DNA of 64,000 nt, taken from sequence record PZ543597.1. One strand, written 5' to 3'. The DNA comes from a phage. Shown here piece after piece: positions 2,634 through 29,266 of this stretch. A program made the translations under genes and the position numbers. Position 1 is the first letter of the stretch, and each line of letters starts with the position of its first letter. The notes under the pieces were generated by a model, which had not been told where the DNA came from, made no database searches, and saw only the letters and a program-made list of their open reading frames with translations.

Positions 2634-4184
2634 TTAGTAATGAACTTTAATAATATAGTTTAATGATATATTCCATGGTCTAGTTTCATAACCAATTAAT
2701 CCTTCACGATTAAGTGTACCATGAGCATCTCTCGGTCCACCTAATTCAAATCCATCATTAGTGAAGTATGAAGCATTATCCCAGTCGGAATATTTTCTAG
2801 TTCCAAGATATCCTTGATAAACTGACGCGCCAAATGGGCCTTCACTTCTGTTATATTCACCCCAACCACCAGCATGTTTATGGTATGACATTTGTTGTGC
2901 CTGAACACCACCAACATGCATTCCGTCACATCCTACGCCCAGTCTATCCTTTCCATAGCCATCTTGTCCACGTTGATTTAAAATATGACCGCCTGTGCCG
3001 GCTCCTCTGACGAAAAGACCCCGCATATCAGGAACGCCAGGATTATTCCAATCGCCACCAAATCTTGTTCCAACTACGTTTCTATAATCAGGAAATTGGT
3101 CACCTGACACGGTTCCACCATGACACATAATCCAACCTGGAGGTGCTGAATCACCCGCAAACATCATAATAGTTCCAACCGGAACTCGTTCGGACGCATA
3201 TCTTTCAGTGGCAACAGGTTGATCGCCATTTTTCCACATTCCACCGCGTGACCAAATTCCATTTGCTGTAAGATGGTCTAAATTTAAAGAACCATTAATA
3301 GTTTGTCCACCACGAGTATTAATTACATCTGCGTTCCATGCTAATGCTCCAGAGCTATCACCTTCAGGGGCAATACCGGCTTGCGTCGTTAATTTAACTA
3401 CTCCACGCATAGAACCGGTAGCTCCTCGACCATTTAGTGTTTCACCTGTTACTGCAACACCACCCAAATTATTATTAATTTCAGTCTGCGTTCCTAGGCG
3501 TATAACACCCTTATATTCATGTGTTGCAACAGAATTCATAAAGGTATACGGGGAAATTGCATATCCTTCGCGGAGAGTTCCTTGACGAATTTGTGCAACA
3601 GTAGATAATTGAACTACTCCTCTCACCGATTCTGTTGCAGTGTCTTCTGAAGGAGCTATTTGCGAAATTAATTTTATTGCAAGTTTTTGGGTTTTTAGCG
3701 GAGTCATCGCAGTAGTATCATCAACTCCAGCCAAAGCTGCAGGTGTAGATGATATTTTAATAACCCCGTTTGATGACTCAGACGAATATCTATTTTTGAA
3801 CACATCGTCAGTGTGGTATTTCAGTTTTTGTGGTGTTATTGATGAATTATTATCTGAGCCTTTTAATGTTTCTTCATTTGTTGAATAACGCGTTAAACCA
3901 TATTTAGTTTCAGTAGCATTTGGATACAATAATCTTGTTGCTAATGTAGCTGGTGTAACGATTTTAGAATTATTAGTTCCATCTAAAACCTCTTGCTCTG
4001 ACGCAATCATTGCTATTCCTTTAACTTCCATAGTTGCATCAGGAATACCATTTACGCCGATATTACTTATTTTTGATAATGCAGACTGTACTGTCGTAAC
4101 AGTGCCAGGAAAATTCGATCCAGTAGGATCGAATTTAACATATTTTGATTCATTTGATACGTGCTGATATGTATTGTTACTCAT
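2634..4184 (-). CDS. 12: short tail fibre gp12
   Basis: 516-aa ORF between gene 11 and wac, Gly/Asn-rich fibre-like sequence; T4 synteny. Confidence 0.9.
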
Positions 4185-20372: not shown

Positions 20373-20385
20373 TTTCACAAAGTTG

Positions 20386-20414
20386 TTTACATAGGGTTTT
20401 AGTTGTGATACTAT
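20386..20414 (+). promoter_or_regulatory. T4-type early promoter (-35 TTTACA, 17-bp spacer, -10 TACTAT)
   Basis: Preceded by ttcacaaagttg; a 7-bp inverted repeat atagggt/accctat brackets the spacer and -10. Confidence 0.65.
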
Positions 20415-20448
20415 TACCCTATCAAAACAAAACCAAATGGAAATCAAA

Positions 20449-20682
20449 ATGAAAACTTACCAAGAATTTATTGCTGAAACTGCTGATGTAAAAGTTGAGT
20501 TTATTTACACTGGCAAGAAAGATAAAATGGGTGAAATGCCTCATGGAGTTCTTCGTGATGCATTAGATAATTTCGGTCAACTCGCCGCAGAAGATTACGG
20601 TGATAAAATTGTTGTTACTGGTCCTGCTGCAGTTATTGAAAAATGGGCAGCAGAAAATAAATCAATTTTTCGTAAAAAATAA
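20449..20682 (+). CDS. internal-protein-like gene with capsid targeting sequence (ipI locus)
   Basis: Begins MKTYQEFIAE, the T-even capsid targeting sequence cleaved by the prohead protease; the rest of the 77-aa protein does not match T4 IpI as recalled. Confidence 0.6.
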   Translation: MKTYQEFIAETADVKVEFIYTGKKDKMGEMPHGVLRDALDNFGQLAAEDYGDKIVVTGPAAVIEKWAAENKSIFRKK

Positions 20683-20683
20683 G

Positions 20684-20712
20684 TTTACTTTTAGATAGGG
20701 TAGTGATACTAT
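20684..20712 (+). promoter_or_regulatory. T4-type early promoter with embedded stem-loop
   Basis: -35 TTTACT, 17-bp spacer, -10 TACTAT; 9-bp inverted repeat gatagggta/taccctatc (20694-20721) with the -10 in its loop. Confidence 0.65.
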
Positions 20713-20740
20713 TACCCTATCTACTACTGAGGAGAATAAA

Positions 20741-21711: not shown

Positions 21712-21784
21712 TGGGAATTAGCCAAGTTGGTAAGGCACTGGATTTTGATTCCAGGATGCAAAGGTTCGAGTCCTTTATTCCCAG
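21712..21784 (+). tRNA. tRNA-Gln: tRNA-Gln (anticodon UUG)
   Basis: Manual cloverleaf: acceptor tgggaat/attccca, anticodon loop ttTTGat, T-loop ttcgagt. Confidence 0.85.
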
Positions 21785-21785
21785 C

Positions 21786-21872
21786 GCGAGAATGGCCAAA
21801 TTGGTAAAGGCACAGCACTTAAAATGCTGCGGAATGATTTCCTTGTGGGTTCGAGTCCCACTTCTCGCACCA
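21786..21872 (+). tRNA. tRNA-Leu: tRNA-Leu (anticodon UAA), class II, CCA encoded
   Basis: Acceptor gcgagaa/ttctcgc, anticodon loop ctTAAaa, long variable arm, 3' CCA. Confidence 0.85.
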
Positions 21873-21877
21873 AATTT

Positions 21878-21951
<74 letters not shown>

Positions 21952-21961
21952 ATTTAATTTA

Positions 21962-22035
21962 CTCCGTGTAGCTCAGTTTGGTAGAGCGTCTGCTTTGGGA
22001 GCAGAATGTCGTAGGTTCAAATCCTGCCACGGAGA
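21962..22035 (+). tRNA. tRNA-Pro: tRNA-Pro (anticodon UGG)
   Basis: Acceptor ctccgtg/cacggag, anticodon stem tctgc/gcaga, loop ttTGGga. Confidence 0.85.
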
Positions 22036-22037
22036 CT

Positions 22038-22127
22038 GGAGGCGTGGCAGAGTGGTTTAATGCACCGGTCTTGAAAATCGGCAGTCGCTCCGGCGACTCA
22101 TAGGTTCAAATCCTATCGCCTCCGCCA
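22038..22127 (+). tRNA. tRNA-Ser: tRNA-Ser (anticodon UGA), class II
   Basis: Acceptor ggaggcg/cgcctcc, anticodon loop ctTGAaa, long variable arm, 3' CCA. Confidence 0.85.
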
Positions 22128-22132
22128 GTTTT

Positions 22133-22208
22133 GCTGATTTAGCTCAGTAGGTAGAGCAACTCACTTGTAATGAGAAGGTCGGCGGTTCGATTCCGTCAAT
22201 CAGCACCA
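22133..22208 (+). tRNA. tRNA-Thr: tRNA-Thr (anticodon UGU)
   Basis: Acceptor gctgatt/aatcagc, anticodon loop ctTGTaa, 3' CCA. Confidence 0.85.
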
Positions 22209-22209
22209 A

Positions 22210-22284
22210 GGCCCTGTAGCTGGAAGGTTCAAGCAAGCGACTCATAATCGCCAGATGGTGGTTCAATTCCACCCAGGGCCACCA
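22210..22284 (+). tRNA. tRNA-Ile: tRNA with anticodon CAU (Ile by analogy with T4, where the wobble C is modified; Met not excluded)
   Basis: Acceptor ggccctg/cagggcc, anticodon loop ctCATaa, 3' CCA. Confidence 0.75.
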
Positions 22285-22293
22285 AATTAATTT

Positions 22294-22380
22294 GGGGAGT
22301 TATCCCGTAGAGGTAGCGGTGTGGACTGTAAATCCATTGTCATTGCGACTCGGGTGGTTCGACTCCACCACTCCCCACCA
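22294..22380 (+). tRNA. tRNA-Tyr: tRNA-Tyr (anticodon GUA), class II; not among the eight T4 tRNAs
   Basis: Acceptor ggggagt/actcccc, anticodon stem gtgga/tccat with loop ctGTAaa, 15-nt variable arm, T-arm ggtgg-ttcgact-ccacc, 3' CCA. Confidence 0.7.
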
Positions 22381-22384
22381 ATTT

Positions 22385-22459
22385 GGATGTGTAGCTCAAT
22401 GGCAGAGCGATCGCCTGTTAAGCGATTGGTTATAGGTTCGAATCCTATCACGTCCGCCA
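22385..22459 (+). tRNA. tRNA-Asn: tRNA-Asn (anticodon GUU); not among the eight T4 tRNAs
   Basis: Acceptor ggatgtg/cacgtcc (one G-U), anticodon stem atcgc/gcgat with loop ctGTTaa, T-loop ttcgaat, 3' CCA. Confidence 0.7.
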
Positions 22460-22573
22460 AATTTGTGACAACTGTCACATTAATATCTACTTGACGCGAT
22501 TATAGGGGTTGAACTGATCACTCTTCTCTTAATTTCGTGTGAAGACATCTTGATTGTTGGAGTAGGTATTAAT

Positions 22574-22649
22574 GTGGCCGTAGTTCAGTTGGTAGAACTC
22601 GAGATTGTGATTCTCGTAGTCATGGGTTCGACTCCCATCGGTCACCCCA
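22574..22649 (+). tRNA. tRNA-His: tRNA-His (anticodon GUG); not among the eight T4 tRNAs
   Basis: Acceptor gtggccg/cggtcac, D-stem gttc/gaac, anticodon stem cgaga/tctcg with loop ttGTGat, T-loop ttcgact, 3' CCA. Confidence 0.7.
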
Positions 22650-22653
22650 ATTA

Positions 22654-22729
22654 CGGGGCATAGCTCAGAAGGAAGAGCAAGGACCTTCTAAGTCCTAGGT
22701 CGTAGGTTCGATCCCTACTGCCTCGACCA
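22654..22729 (+). tRNA. tRNA-Arg: tRNA-Arg (anticodon UCU)
   Basis: Acceptor cggggca/tgcctcg, anticodon stem aggac/gtcct with loop ctTCTaa, T-loop ttcgatc, 3' CCA. Confidence 0.85.
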
Positions 22730-22747: not shown

Positions 22748-23098
22748 ATGAAAGGTAATGTTTATTTAGTAGTTCATGATTTAACATTCTATTTTAATCA
22801 TAATGATACTGTTATTTCTGAACGTGTAATTAATTTGCTTTATCAGCATGCAGATTATGTTTATGTCGAAAACGAATATGGTCATTGGCAATTTCTCAAA
22901 AATCGTTCATTTGGTTTAGATGGTTACGAATATTTTGATCGTAAAGACCTTTTAGATACAATTCCGTTATCTACACAATATCAAAATCATAAGTCTTTAC
23001 ATAAATGCCGGCTAATTCGAAATGCTGAATCCGCGTATGAAGCAATTGATTTGTGGCGTAAACGCCGTGAATATATTGATTCTTTAAAAGAATATTAA
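22748..23098 (+). CDS. hypothetical protein
   Basis: 116-aa ORF with RBS gtgaggaaaat immediately after tRNA-Arg; AT-rich phage-like codon usage. Confidence 0.55.
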   Translation: MKGNVYLVVHDLTFYFNHNDTVISERVINLLYQHADYVYVENEYGHWQFLKNRSFGLDGYEYFDRKDLLDTIPLSTQYQNHKSLHKCRLIRNAESAYEAIDLWRKRREYIDSLKEY

Positions 23099-23099
23099 G

Positions 23100-23434
23100 A
23101 AACCGGGTCGCTACCGGTAAGTCGTCGGACTGATGTTCCCTGGAGTATAGTTTCCTCCCACAGTTTTACTGTGTTCTGGCTCTTTACTATCACAGCAGAA
23201 ACGGCGCACCGAATTATCGATTCGAGGAAATATCTTTGCCGTAAGCCGAGTAGCGTTTTTGACGGAACGTTCGGATATGGTCGAGATATGGCCTTTTAAA
23301 AATATTGAGTAGCGTCAACTACTTAATAACCGGGTTCGAATCCCGGCGTTTCGTACAAACACTTGCCTTAGCAGGTGGAACCCCGACAAGGTTGCCGCAA
23401 GGCTTAGCCCCGACCGAAAGGTTGGGGCTTTTTG
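23100..23434 (+). ncRNA. GC-rich structured non-coding segment, possible stable RNA (compare T4 rnaC/rnaD)
   Basis: About 330 nt with no ORF on either strand except a spurious N-terminal extension; GC content clearly above the local phage average; contains a tRNA-like T-arm ccggg-ttcgaat-cccgg and several hairpins; ends in an intrinsic terminator. Confidence 0.3.
23406..23434 (+). terminator. intrinsic terminator (copy 1 of a repeated hairpin)
   Basis: agccccgaccgaaaggttggggc followed by ttttt; identical to 23963-23990. Confidence 0.7.
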
Positions 23435-23435
23435 G

Positions 23436-23443
23436 TATAAATA
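23436..23443 (+). promoter_or_regulatory. T4-type late promoter (TATAAATA) for the downstream capsid-targeting-sequence gene
   Basis: Exact TATAAATA immediately 3' of the terminator hairpin, 39 nt upstream of the ATG at 23482. Confidence 0.55.
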
Positions 23444-23481
23444 TTAGTATATTAAATCTACAAATTAAAACAGGAAATAAG

Positions 23482-23955
23482 ATGAAATCATATACTCAAT
23501 TTTTAAATGAAGCGGTGTTAAATGAAGCATCTAGCACCGAAATTCAAGCTGTTGCAAAAGCTGCCATTGCCGCGGGTAAATATTCCTATAAAGATGCTTC
23601 TGATGAATCGCGATTCCAGTTTGCACGCGACATGAAAGCGGAAGGATTTACGGGAAATGCAGTTAGTATGGCCTGGAAAAGTTTAGTTGCTACTGGCGCT
23701 GCTTTTGCAAAGGCTTCGGGTAAACCTGCTCCTAAAGCAGATCCTAAAGCGGCACAAGAAAAAAATATCGTTAAAGGAATTATCGCTAAATATGAAGCTA
23801 TCCTTAAAGAGCTTTTAGTAATCAAAACCGAAGGCCAAAAGTTAGCCCGTGCTTATAGTTTCAAAGATAATCCACATGTTCACTCTCTTGAGTATGTTGA
23901 AGACATCCAAAAAATTATTAAAGACCGCATTTGGTCTGCTAAACAAATCAAATGA
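23482..23955 (+). CDS. internal-protein-like gene with capsid targeting sequence
   Basis: Starts MKSYTQFLNEA with RBS caggaaa; Ala/Lys-rich 157-aa product. The track ORF 23305-23955 extends upstream through a terminator hairpin and is rejected as the start. Confidence 0.6.
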   Translation: MKSYTQFLNEAVLNEASSTEIQAVAKAAIAAGKYSYKDASDESRFQFARDMKAEGFTGNAVSMAWKSLVATGAAFAKASGKPAPKADPKAAQEKNIVKGIIAKYEAILKELLVIKTEGQKLARAYSFKDNPHVHSLEYVEDIQKIIKDRIWSAKQIK

Positions 23956-23962
23956 CATTCTT

Positions 23963-23990
23963 AGCCCCGACCGAAAGGTTGGGGCTTTTT
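23963..23990 (+). terminator. intrinsic terminator (copy 2 of the repeated hairpin)
   Basis: Same agccccgaccgaaaggttggggc hairpin plus ttttt, directly after the stop at 23955. Confidence 0.7.
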
Positions 23991-24080
23991 AGTTTGAATC
24001 ACTCGGATAACGCTGTTACGGATAGTAACAAAGTAATAAATAATTAATAACCAACCGATAAATTATTTCAAGGATTTTAA

Positions 24081-24644
24081 ATGAAAACCTATGCCGAATT
24101 TTTAACCGAAGCAGCAAAATTACCATCTGAAGCAGATCTTACTAAAGTATTCTTCCAATTGGACCCAAAAGACCGCGGCGATTTTCTTAAGTGGAAAGCT
24201 AAAGCTATTGAAATGTACAACATCGATAATAGTTCTTTTACAATGAGTCAAGAAAATAAATTCAATAAAGCATTTTTCAAAATTTCTAAGAAATTGGCAT
24301 CTGGCGCTCAGGTTCCTAAATCTGTGTTAGCTACTCCTGAACGCGCACCTGTTAAAATTTCTAAGAATATGTTCGACACTAAAAAATACGTTAATGCTTT
24401 GAATAAAGCTCTTGATGCATTGGATGATGCAAAGAAGGCAGCCCGCGATCTTCAAGACGTGTACACCGATTTTGACCGCAAAACTAAAGGTTCTATTTCA
24501 AATAGCGAACGCAATAGTGTAAGTGTTTATTCTGATAGCCTTGATGTTCTTGGCGATGCGTATACTGAAATTAAAAATCGTATTAACACTGCATCTAAGC
24601 TAAAAGCTGCTGCAGAAGCTATAATAAGTAAACTAGGTAAATAA
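24081..24644 (+). CDS. internal-protein-like gene with capsid targeting sequence
   Basis: 187-aa ORF starting MKTYAEFLTEA with RBS aaggat; basic and Ala-rich, similar in size to T4 IpIII. Confidence 0.6.
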   Translation: MKTYAEFLTEAAKLPSEADLTKVFFQLDPKDRGDFLKWKAKAIEMYNIDNSSFTMSQENKFNKAFFKISKKLASGAQVPKSVLATPERAPVKISKNMFDTKKYVNALNKALDALDDAKKAARDLQDVYTDFDRKTKGSISNSERNSVSVYSDSLDVLGDAYTEIKNRINTASKLKAAAEAIISKLGK

Positions 24645-24651
24645 TTTTAAA

Positions 24652-24677
24652 TCCCTATCTAAATGATAGGGCTTTTT
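24652..24677 (+). terminator. intrinsic terminator
   Basis: Hairpin ccctatc-taaat-gataggg followed by ctttttgg. Confidence 0.6.
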
Positions 24678-24810
24678 GGTATCTAGGCCTTTCTGGACCT
24701 CTCTAGGCATCATTTAGTTTCTACCCTTTATAATATATTATCCTATCCTTTAACTGCCCCTTCCCTCCCTAGAATTCCCTAAAACTTTTTAAAATTTTTT
24801 CACAAAACTG

Positions 24811-24839
24811 TTTACATCCCCGTTCTTCCATGGTACTAT
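24811..24839 (+). promoter_or_regulatory. T4-type early promoter
   Basis: A/T-rich upstream region with ttcacaaaactg, -35 TTTACA, 17-bp spacer, -10 TACTAT. Confidence 0.65.
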
Positions 24840-24883
24840 ACAACTATCAACTACTGATACAGAAAAACAACTTGGAGAATGAA

Positions 24884-25147
24884 ATGGATAATTACGGCGA
24901 ACTGTTCAACTTCTTTATGAAATGCGTTTCAGAAGATTTCGGTCGTACAGTGAATGATATTAAAGTTATCGGTCCTGATCATCCGATGTTTGAAACTTAC
25001 GCAGTAATGGGTAATGAAGACGGTCAGTGGTATACTGTAAAAGTTGTGATTAACATGTTCACAGCAGAAGGTTATGTTAAACTGTCTTCTAAAGTTTATC
25101 ATGACAACGACGAAATCGCAGAAGAATATTTCAATAATATGAAATAA
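24884..25147 (+). CDS. hypothetical acidic protein
   Basis: 87 aa from an ATG preceded by ggagaatgaa; the track ORF begins further upstream inside the promoter. Confidence 0.5.
   Translation: MDNYGELFNFFMKCVSEDFGRTVNDIKVIGPDHPMFETYAVMGNEDGQWYTVKVVINMFTAEGYVKLSSKVYHDNDEIAEEYFNNMK

Positions 25148-28463: not shown

Positions 28464-29266
<803 letters not shown>

Follow-up and report, generated by a model that had tools for sequence, protein, structure and literature searches.

The interval between the rnaC-like RNA gene and gene e.8 of phage sequence record PZ543597.1 raises the question of whether a transcription terminator can also serve as the point at which whole genes enter and leave a phage genome. 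The stretch analysed, 64,000 nucleotides (nt) long and referred to here as the window, is a segment of a Tequatrovirus (T4-like) genome and is 99% identical at this locus to phages such as D5505, U115 and Paracelsus. Within it, a hairpin with a T-run (hairpin A) stands on both sides of a small gene (gene 1). A sequence-only reading had proposed that this arrangement is a self-contained module which could be gained or lost by recombination between the hairpin copies. Comparison with related phages supports the proposal, with all six examined genomes that lack gene 1 and retain its neighbour (gene 2) carrying the predicted junction. The idea extends further than originally claimed, as gene 2 is a second module that ends in a different terminator (hairpin B). 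It is probable that the region from the rnaC terminator to the e.8 early promoter is a cassette site, where terminator repeats recombine whole late modules among T-even-like phages. The recombination is deduced from the sequences of the joins.

Predicted terminators and late modules between rnaC and e.8

All features described here lie on the + strand. Hairpin A copy 1 is a 31-nt unit at 23403–23433 (stem 23406–23429, T-run to 23433), and copy 2, the predicted terminator of gene 1, is exactly the same unit at 23960–23990 (stem 23963–23986, T-run to 23990). The unit consists of CTT, AGCCCCGACC-GAAA-GGTTGGGGCT and TTTT, the 5′ CTT being part of the identity. These are the two copies in the 64 kb; no further copy with up to three mismatches was found over that length, and none was expected in 100 shuffles. 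AGCCCCGACCGAAAGGTTGGGGCT and its T-run show 0 mismatches between 23406–23433 and 23963–23990. The repeat had been described as an identical 29-bp hairpin with its T-run; it is real, but identity stops with the fifth T, the 29th base being G23434 in one copy and A23991 in the other.

In each copy, a 10-bp stem with seven G-C pairs and a GAAA loop is followed by five T residues; the fold has −20.3 kcal/mol, a stability that 0 of 200 shuffles reached (z = −3.2 and −5.2). Both copies scored as terminator-like, with a GC-rich stem running directly into the T-run in the manner of an intrinsic terminator. The pairing is retained across 10 variants (92% of cells paired), including a Dhakavirus variant in which a C-G pair is replaced by a compensatory G-C pair. 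From this structure, the hairpins would be expected to terminate transcription.

Phages T4, T2 and RB3 carry one identical hairpin approximately 50 nt after rnaC, followed by TTTTTGGTATCTA(A/G)GCC and the e.8 leader with no gene between. As this is the sole hairpin in that interval, and as termination of the T4 tRNA primary transcript has been reported beyond the species I RNA (rnaC) gene (PMC2330249), hairpin A is most plausibly the tRNA/rnaC unit's own resident terminator. Just upstream of copy 1, the rnaC trailer holds AACCCCGACAAGGTTGCCGC (23377–23396), which is also present in T4 and resembles hairpin A (AGCCCCGACCGAAAGGTTGGGGC); it may be a degenerate older copy.

Gene 1 (23482–23955) encodes 157 amino acids and gene 2 (24081–24644) encodes 187. 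The sequence-only reading had placed a late promoter immediately after the first hairpin, and a late promoter motif, TATAAATA (23436–23443), is indeed found 2 nt past the copy 1 T-run, 46 nt upstream of the gene 1 ATG at 23482, making it a candidate promoter by position. The consensus motif adjoins copy 1 only. After copy 2, a variant, AATAAATA (24035–24042), is located 44 nt beyond the T-run, and its distance of 46 nt from the gene 2 ATG is that seen at gene 1. As the TATAAATA octamer occurs no more often than chance in this AT-rich window (12 found versus 10.6 expected from shuffles), the candidate call relies on position and conservation. All gene 1 loci examined (Tequatrovirus, Mosigvirus-like and Dhakavirus) have an xATAAATA sequence 34–48 nt ahead of the gene. 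AATAAATA is kept in eight of nine gene 2 loci in one comparison; it is present in Killian, pSs-1 and ST2 and not in RB14 or CT01. An A or T at position −13 is common in T4-like late promoters (PMC1524935). No sigma-70-like −35/−10 match was found between hairpin A and either ATG. It appears that TATAAATA and AATAAATA may both be used as late promoters.

Hairpin B, the predicted terminator of gene 2, has the sequence CCCTATC-TAAAT-GATAGGG (stem-loop 24653–24671) and continues through CTTTTT and GGTAT to 24682; it is terminator-like by fold. Its 3′ end (24669–24682) is the same 14-nt GGGCTTTTTGGTAT that forms the 3′ end of hairpin A copy 1 (23425–23438). The direct repeats available at the locus measure 31–36 nt between the A copies, 14 nt between A copy 1 and B, and 9 nt between A copy 2 and B, and in every repeat GGGC stands beside an inverted arm containing GCCC. 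Both genes have the same module order, namely a late promoter motif, a Shine–Dalgarno sequence, an open reading frame (ORF) with a capsid-targeting sequence (CTS) and a GC-rich intrinsic terminator. Beyond hairpin B, an early-promoter-like site (TTTACA-17-TACTAT, 24811–24839) lies upstream of e.8 (phrog_2678, 24884–25147), the conserved right flank of the cassette locus.

Occupancy and junctions in related phages

A search of the phage collection with positions 23100–24900 recovered 770 records that carry the locus, and these fall into coverage classes. Full coverage (128 records) corresponds to the full span with no difference in length; coverage of approximately 71% to a span of approximately 1243 nt (557 nt shorter); approximately 62% to approximately 1115 nt (687 nt shorter); and approximately 32% to approximately 555 nt (1244 nt shorter). 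These differences agree with the spacing of the repeats in the window. Approximately 128 records have both genes and approximately 77 are empty; gene 2 stands alone in approximately 37, gene 1 is present but gene 2 absent in approximately 270, and the rest are more divergent. These figures, obtained by subtracting record counts and from rows sampled at even intervals, are inflated because GenBank/RefSeq duplicates and clonal isolates are counted separately. An IMG/VR scan with e.8 yielded 10 loci, and the class counts were therefore taken from the phage collection. Junction-specific BLAST counts were not used, since pieces up to approximately 500 nt apart are joined and both hairpin copies would be merged.

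Approximately 35 loci were fetched and their joins read base by base. The presence/absence polymorphism that the sequence-only reading had suggested looking for was found, with most joins situated in the hairpins. Gene 2 without gene 1 was seen in SP1, Killian, RB14 and CT01 (Tequatrovirus) and in RB69 and ESh27 (Mosigvirus). In six of six, GCCGCAAGGCTT of the rnaC flank is followed by a single hairpin A and then by TTTTTAGTTTGAATCAC of the gene 2 leader, with a locus shortened by 557 nt. One hairpin thus links the sequence left of copy 1 to the sequence right of copy 2, as a crossover between the window's two copies would be expected to leave. Homology extends in the left flank to 23442 and resumes in the right flank from 23960.

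The gene-1-only state occurs in RB68, BMB16, PEC04, Sf25 and two IMG/VR contigs. In these, the second hairpin A runs directly into GGTATCTAGGCC, which follows hairpin B in the window, and the join lies within GGGCTTTTT(GGTAT), common to hairpin A and hairpin B (24653–24677); the limits of homology are 23990–23993 on the left and 24639–24661 on the right. In the empty genomes (T4, T2 and RB3), hairpin A is joined to the same post-hairpin-B sequence. Compared with these, the window has an extra 1244 nt bounded by the 14-nt direct repeat GGGCTTTTTGGTAT, to which the junction maps (left homology to 23438, right from 24653). The limits at 23438–23442, 23960, 23990–23993 and 24639–24661 all lie within the hairpin repeats. 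The Gaprivervirus RZ also departs from the window directly after hairpin A copy 1, with left homology to 23442.

The left arm of the hairpin in gene-2-only genomes has three haplotypes, GACC, AGCC and TTCC. The GACC genomes match window-type genomes, and the TTCC genomes (RB69 and ESh27) match phage ST2, in which both copies are TTCC and the e.8 leader is the same variant. These three haplotypes, and the match of TTCC to ST2, argue for more than one recombination event behind the gene-2-only state. Two alleles of gene 1 (approximately 96–100% and approximately 82% identical to the window) each occur both with and without gene 2. The ST2 record itself (OM982647.1), a 171-kb T4-like genome, is filed under Guernseyvirinae; Kagunavirus, a taxonomy line that is probably a mislabel.

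As a query, hairpin A matched 1356 places in 863 records of the phage collection, or one to two per genome, and those examined were all at this locus. Copies within one genome are not always identical, as they differ in RB68, Sf25 and IMGVR19. They nonetheless tend to share a variant, including the Dhakavirus compensatory change, which is present in both copies; this suggests homogenisation between copies or independent duplications. In phage vB_VIPECOOM03, copy 2 (locus positions ~3061–3084) reads AGCCCCGACC-TTTC-GGTCGGGGCT, a true palindrome in which the loop is flipped and the stem has become perfect. A quasipalindrome template switch is the apparent origin, so intrastrand templating would have occurred at hairpin A, and palindromes of this type explain why some genomes give three places for the query.

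Proposed recombination at the terminators and its rivals

The proposed mechanism begins with two independent late-expression modules situated between the tRNA/rnaC terminator and the e.8 early promoter. Gene 1 would end in a second copy of the resident rnaC terminator, and gene 2 in hairpin B, which has its 3′ end and the sequence beyond it in common with hairpin A. Short-homology recombination at these repeats would have repeatedly removed, added and re-assorted the cassettes, producing the occupancy classes. Deletion between direct repeats would remove a cassette and leave one terminator, and a reciprocal excised circle, or donor DNA in a mixed infection, could add a cassette at the resident terminator. 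Every such join would keep a functional terminator. The junctions are compatible with gain as well as with loss of the cassettes, and recombination at the hairpins is suggested in either case.

Several points weigh against this reading. The case for the mechanism comes from one kind of evidence, the position of the junctions. Efficient homologous recombination in T4 is said to require more than approximately 50 bp (Singer and colleagues, 1982), by which measure 31 nt is short, and identity at the A2/B join is down to 9 nt; the palindrome may also contribute through its structure. Hairpin A is locus-specific and is therefore unable, on its own, to move cassettes between loci. The chance-level frequency of the TATAAATA octamer and the inflation of the record counts, both noted above, belong here as well.

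Breakpoints unrelated to the hairpin copies would also speak against it. The hairpins proved to be the predominant breakpoints but not the sole ones, owing to three exceptions. In GRNsp7, QL01, UGJNEcP4 and one further locus (L022), a small hairpin of a different kind comes after gene 1, and then a gene for a DUF7338 membrane protein, closed by a variant of hairpin A; the limits of this class are the gene 1 stop codon (23953–23956) and, on the right, the e.8 ribosome-binding region (24874). In locus L020, which has a small CCCC-GTCT-GGGG hairpin with T-run between gene 1 and the DUF7338 gene, an internal deletion (3300–3400) has reduced the DUF7338 gene to its first and last few codons. A Logan contig (ERR11570814, L032, 2394–2678) carries an in-frame trna.3::gene1 fusion at the unrelated microhomology TCAAAGAxAA. 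The fusion lacks all of the tRNA cluster, rnaD/rnaC and hairpin A copy 1, together with the greater part of gene 1, and a normal hairpin A and e.8 leader follow; the contig may derive from a natural mutant with a tRNA-region deletion or from chimeric assembly.

A less likely account holds that the hairpins are merely terminators, that each cassette was inserted once long ago, and that the pattern was spread by homologous recombination in the flanks (rnaC and e.8) during mixed infections, with no crossover at the hairpins. The flanks are 91–99% identical among phages and offer ample homology, T-even phages recombine freely, and the divergent copies within RB68, Sf25 and IMGVR19 are in keeping with such an account. 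Flank recombination explains the spread of the states, however, and not their origin, since an A1/A2 join must still have arisen for the gene-2-only state, and an A2/B join for the gene-1-only state. As gene-2-only genomes occur on three hairpin haplotypes in two genera, and as both gene 1 alleles are found with and without gene 2, crossovers between the genes, in the 125-nt spacer that holds hairpin A copy 2, are required.

It is considered very improbable that the hairpins are the sites of a dedicated enzyme, acting on an attC-like folded site, through cruciform cleavage of the endonuclease VII type or through hairpin-directed template switching. The repeats are palindromic, the loop-flipped palindrome of vB_VIPECOOM03 points to intrastrand templating, and the hairpin B joins use only 9–14 nt of identity. 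T4 deletions have also been described as clustering at GGGC/GCCC, with a sequence-specific pathway proposed, in the account of Mosig et al. 1998 given in PMC2839356. Direct-repeat homology, on the other hand, explains all the junctions equally well. No recombinase is known at the locus and none was seen among the ORFs of 21–27.5 kb, although a search aimed at integrases was not made. The hairpin is confined to one locus, and equivalent cassettes are delimited by hairpins of unrelated sequence, namely hairpin B and, in KP01 and JS98-like phages, UUCG types. A SegB-type homing endonuclease in the adjacent tRNA cluster, with co-conversion tracts ending near the first strong secondary structure, is a still more distant prospect. 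Genes of this type are present in the tRNA cluster of T4, GRNsp7, Pu-Krd-SF3 and Killian, and SegB promotes preferential inheritance of this region (PMC2330249). Co-conversion, however, depends on homology at either side and would pass cassettes on without generating joins; the occupancy classes occur with and without the endonuclease gene, and the source phage has no seg gene at the locus and no segB in its tRNA cluster. An assembly or sequencing artefact is almost certainly not the explanation, since both copies are present and identical in the independently sequenced, near-identical D5505 and in two IMG/VR contigs (L018 and L025), and more than 40 phage records match the stretch at 99% or above. 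The possibility that the two hairpins would differ on resequencing, raised in the sequence-only reading, was thus not borne out.

Cargo genes, other loci and known systems

The bracketed ORF at 23482–23955 is real and conserved, with gene 1 present in 403 phage records and gene 2 in 165, at one place in each. Its earlier label of internal protein (IP) has a single basis, the N-terminal capsid-targeting leader, which is present; all database names are "hypothetical protein". The leaders are MKSYTQFLNE|A in gene 1 and MKTYAEFLTE|A in gene 2, each a CTS with the gp21 cleavage motif (L/I-x-E). The CTS consensus, of the MKTYQEFIAE type, is given in PMC3012670 and reportedly by Mullaney and Black (1996). 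T4 IPI, IPII and IPIII match both products over the leader only, the alignments to IPII and IPIII covering residues 1–11/12, and gene 1, gene 2 and two other CTS genes of the window (20449–20682 and 28985–29266) have the first 11 residues alone in common. The CTS is the only thing that IPs share (PMC3012670, PMC12373910). Both genes match phrog_2280, labelled "unknown function", and their status as paralogues was considered on this account. As direct comparison shows only the shared 11-residue leader, they are not treated as such.

Pfam returned no family for gene 1 and only sub-threshold matches for gene 2, and a homologue search with gene 1 found 13 clusters, all in T4-like phages. The AlphaFold2 model of gene 1 is helical with two domains (mean predicted local distance difference test score, pLDDT, 72.7), and a fold search of the PDB with it gave no match (best E = 0.76). 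The single-sequence model of gene 2 is of low confidence (pLDDT 62) and too poor for a fold search. The G+C content is 38.8% for gene 1, 35.8% for gene 2 and 35.0% for the window. By analogy with IPI–III, the two products may be packaged, processed and injected, and may counter host defences.

The cargo itself also varies. Relatives of gene 1 in Yersinia phage fHe-Yen9-01 and Klebsiella phage KP01 (P0038, P0039; L030, 3001–3534) keep the N-terminal domain (residues ~15–75) with an unrelated C-terminal half, which is domain-level mosaicism inside a cargo gene. Decay of gene 2 is seen in RB69 (L003, 1426–1988), where it is split into two ORFs (149c/148c), and in CT01 (L037, 1501–1989), where 75 nt are missing in frame (162 amino acids).

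The same layout is found at the locus in more distant phages. JS98-like Dhakavirus loci carry a composite of AGGCCCTTCCGAAAGGTTGGGCCT, T-run, G and TATAAATA twice (L021 and L023; 2070–2110 and 2694–2732), the first time ahead of the DUF7338 gene and the second ahead of a third CTS gene. The latter (2759–3377, 205 amino acids) starts with MKTYNEFLNESVLNEAGVRM, is unrelated to the others and ends in a UUCG-loop terminator. In KP01, a UUCG hairpin ending in GGGGCTTTTTAGTATAAATA follows the tRNAs; next come the gene 1 relative and another terminator. This relative has the leader MKFKEFLAE, a common N-terminal and a different C-terminal domain, and TATAAATA approximately 45 nt upstream of its ATG. 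Since JS98-like phages and the distant KP01 share this layout, the module of terminator, late promoter and CTS gene appears old and widespread at the site.

On the left, the locus adjoins a cluster of 11 tRNA genes (21712–22729), a 116-residue ORF (phrog_3355, 22748–23098) between tRNA-Arg and rnaD, and rnaD-like and rnaC-like genes for small stable RNAs (~23095–23214 and ~23220–23358). These RNA genes, 91–99% identical to T4/T2 rnaD-rnaC, are the last genes of the tRNA transcription unit; their coordinates were carried over from the RB68 annotation. An Rfam scan of 21.0–25.5 kb returned tRNAs only, with no family for the rnaD/rnaC-like RNAs. T4 has eight tRNA genes, the extra ones here being Tyr, Asn and His, and has nothing between tRNA-Arg and rnaD. 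The tRNA gene with a CAT anticodon is called Met here and is annotated as Ile in T4 and RB14.

Two IP loci are recognised in T4 according to a 2025 study (PMC12373910), and the rnaC–e.8 interval, being neither, appears to be a third, unannotated IP-like site. The recognised loci are ipI, between 57B and trna.4, and ipII/ipIII, between e and denV. In Repoila et al. 1994, as cited by later authors, non-homologous small proteins sharing only the CTS vary in number and identity between repeated regulatory flanks, as here. The repeats in that account are based on early promoters with weak AT-rich stem-loops. The contrast is a direct one, because the window's own ipI locus is of that type. A ~39-nt repeat (GTTTAC...TAGGGT...GTGATACTATTACCCTATC, 20385–20425 and 20683–20722), comprising a T4 early-promoter-like site and an AT-rich stem-loop as in the literature, flanks a 77-residue CTS gene (20449–20682). 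The e–denV locus of the window holds a single 93-residue CTS gene (28985–29266), whose ATG overlaps the stop codon of e and whose leader resembles that of gene 1 over 19 residues; T4 has ipIII and ipII there.

The closest parallel is with the PeSL and PmSL elements, early- and middle-promoter stem-loops (Arbiol et al. 2010, PMC2839356; Comeau et al. 2014, PMC4122927). In both systems, a stem-loop and promoter precede a small accessory gene and are repeated on both sides, indel joins between relatives fall in the repeats, gene expression is kept, and recombination between flanking copies has been proposed. For PeSLs, excision and insertion with mini-circles were partly demonstrated by inverse PCR (PMC2839356, PMC4122927). 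PeSLs have a sigma-70-like early promoter and PmSLs a MotA middle promoter, whereas the motif here is the late TATAAATA. PeSLs are also dispersed in many copies over hyperplastic regions, in contrast to two copies at one locus in 64 kb. The present stem-loop is strong and GC-rich, would double as the tRNA operon terminator, and adjoins cargo genes with capsid-targeting leaders.

Other systems share single features. Deletions between short direct repeats in T4 were reportedly described by Singer and Westlye in 1988. Joins in short direct repeats, with GGGC beside a GCCC-containing inverted arm, recall these T4 deletions, including the laboratory deletions at GGGC/GCCC motifs in Mosig et al. 1998 as cited in PMC2839356. 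Those represent laboratory loss of random non-essential DNA, whereas here the joins lie in predicted terminators and the gain or loss of natural cassettes is clean. Lambdoid morons likewise place a promoter and terminator around a single ORF between two existing units, but typically have a distinct G+C content and are expressed in the prophage; here, the G+C content is near that of the genome and expression would be late lytic. The likeness to integron attC arrays is architectural only, in that single-gene cassettes form a promoter-proximal array, each followed by an imperfect palindrome. Here, unlike in integrons, every cassette has its own candidate promoter and the palindromes are predicted terminators.

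No description of the rnaC–e.8 locus or of a late-promoter stem-loop element was found in the literature searched; Repoila 1994 and Comeau 2007 lay outside that search and may hold a prior description. Modular shuffling of the PeSL and IP-locus type is already known in phages. What would be new here is the late promoter, the GC-rich tRNA-operon terminator, the single-locus repeat and the third locus.

T-even internal proteins are injected with the DNA, and the three of T4 inhibit different GmrSD type IV restriction enzymes (PMC12373910), which makes the IP repertoire a determinant of host range. A more ambitious proposal, which is tentative and on balance doubtful, is that the terminator and late-promoter unit is a dedicated exchange element, the "late" counterpart of the PeSL, and that the rnaC–e.8 interval is an integron-like, recombinase-free array for injected anti-defence proteins. 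The palindrome would then provoke recombination through cruciform cleavage or template switching beyond what 31 nt of homology allows. On this view, gene 1, gene 2 and the 205-residue JS98-type gene would encode previously undescribed injected proteins that inhibit host restriction systems, for example GmrSD variants.

The locus carries at least three different CTS-bearing cargo genes, all annotated as "hypothetical" in hundreds of genomes of therapeutic-candidate phages. The position just after the rnaC terminator in T4 would be a naturally tolerated insertion site for phage engineering. The series of empty, gene 1, gene 2 and doubly occupied loci is a natural experiment in how T4-like phages may swap accessory genes with transcription left intact, and would bring late regulatory signals into the PeSL idea, so far built on early and middle ones.

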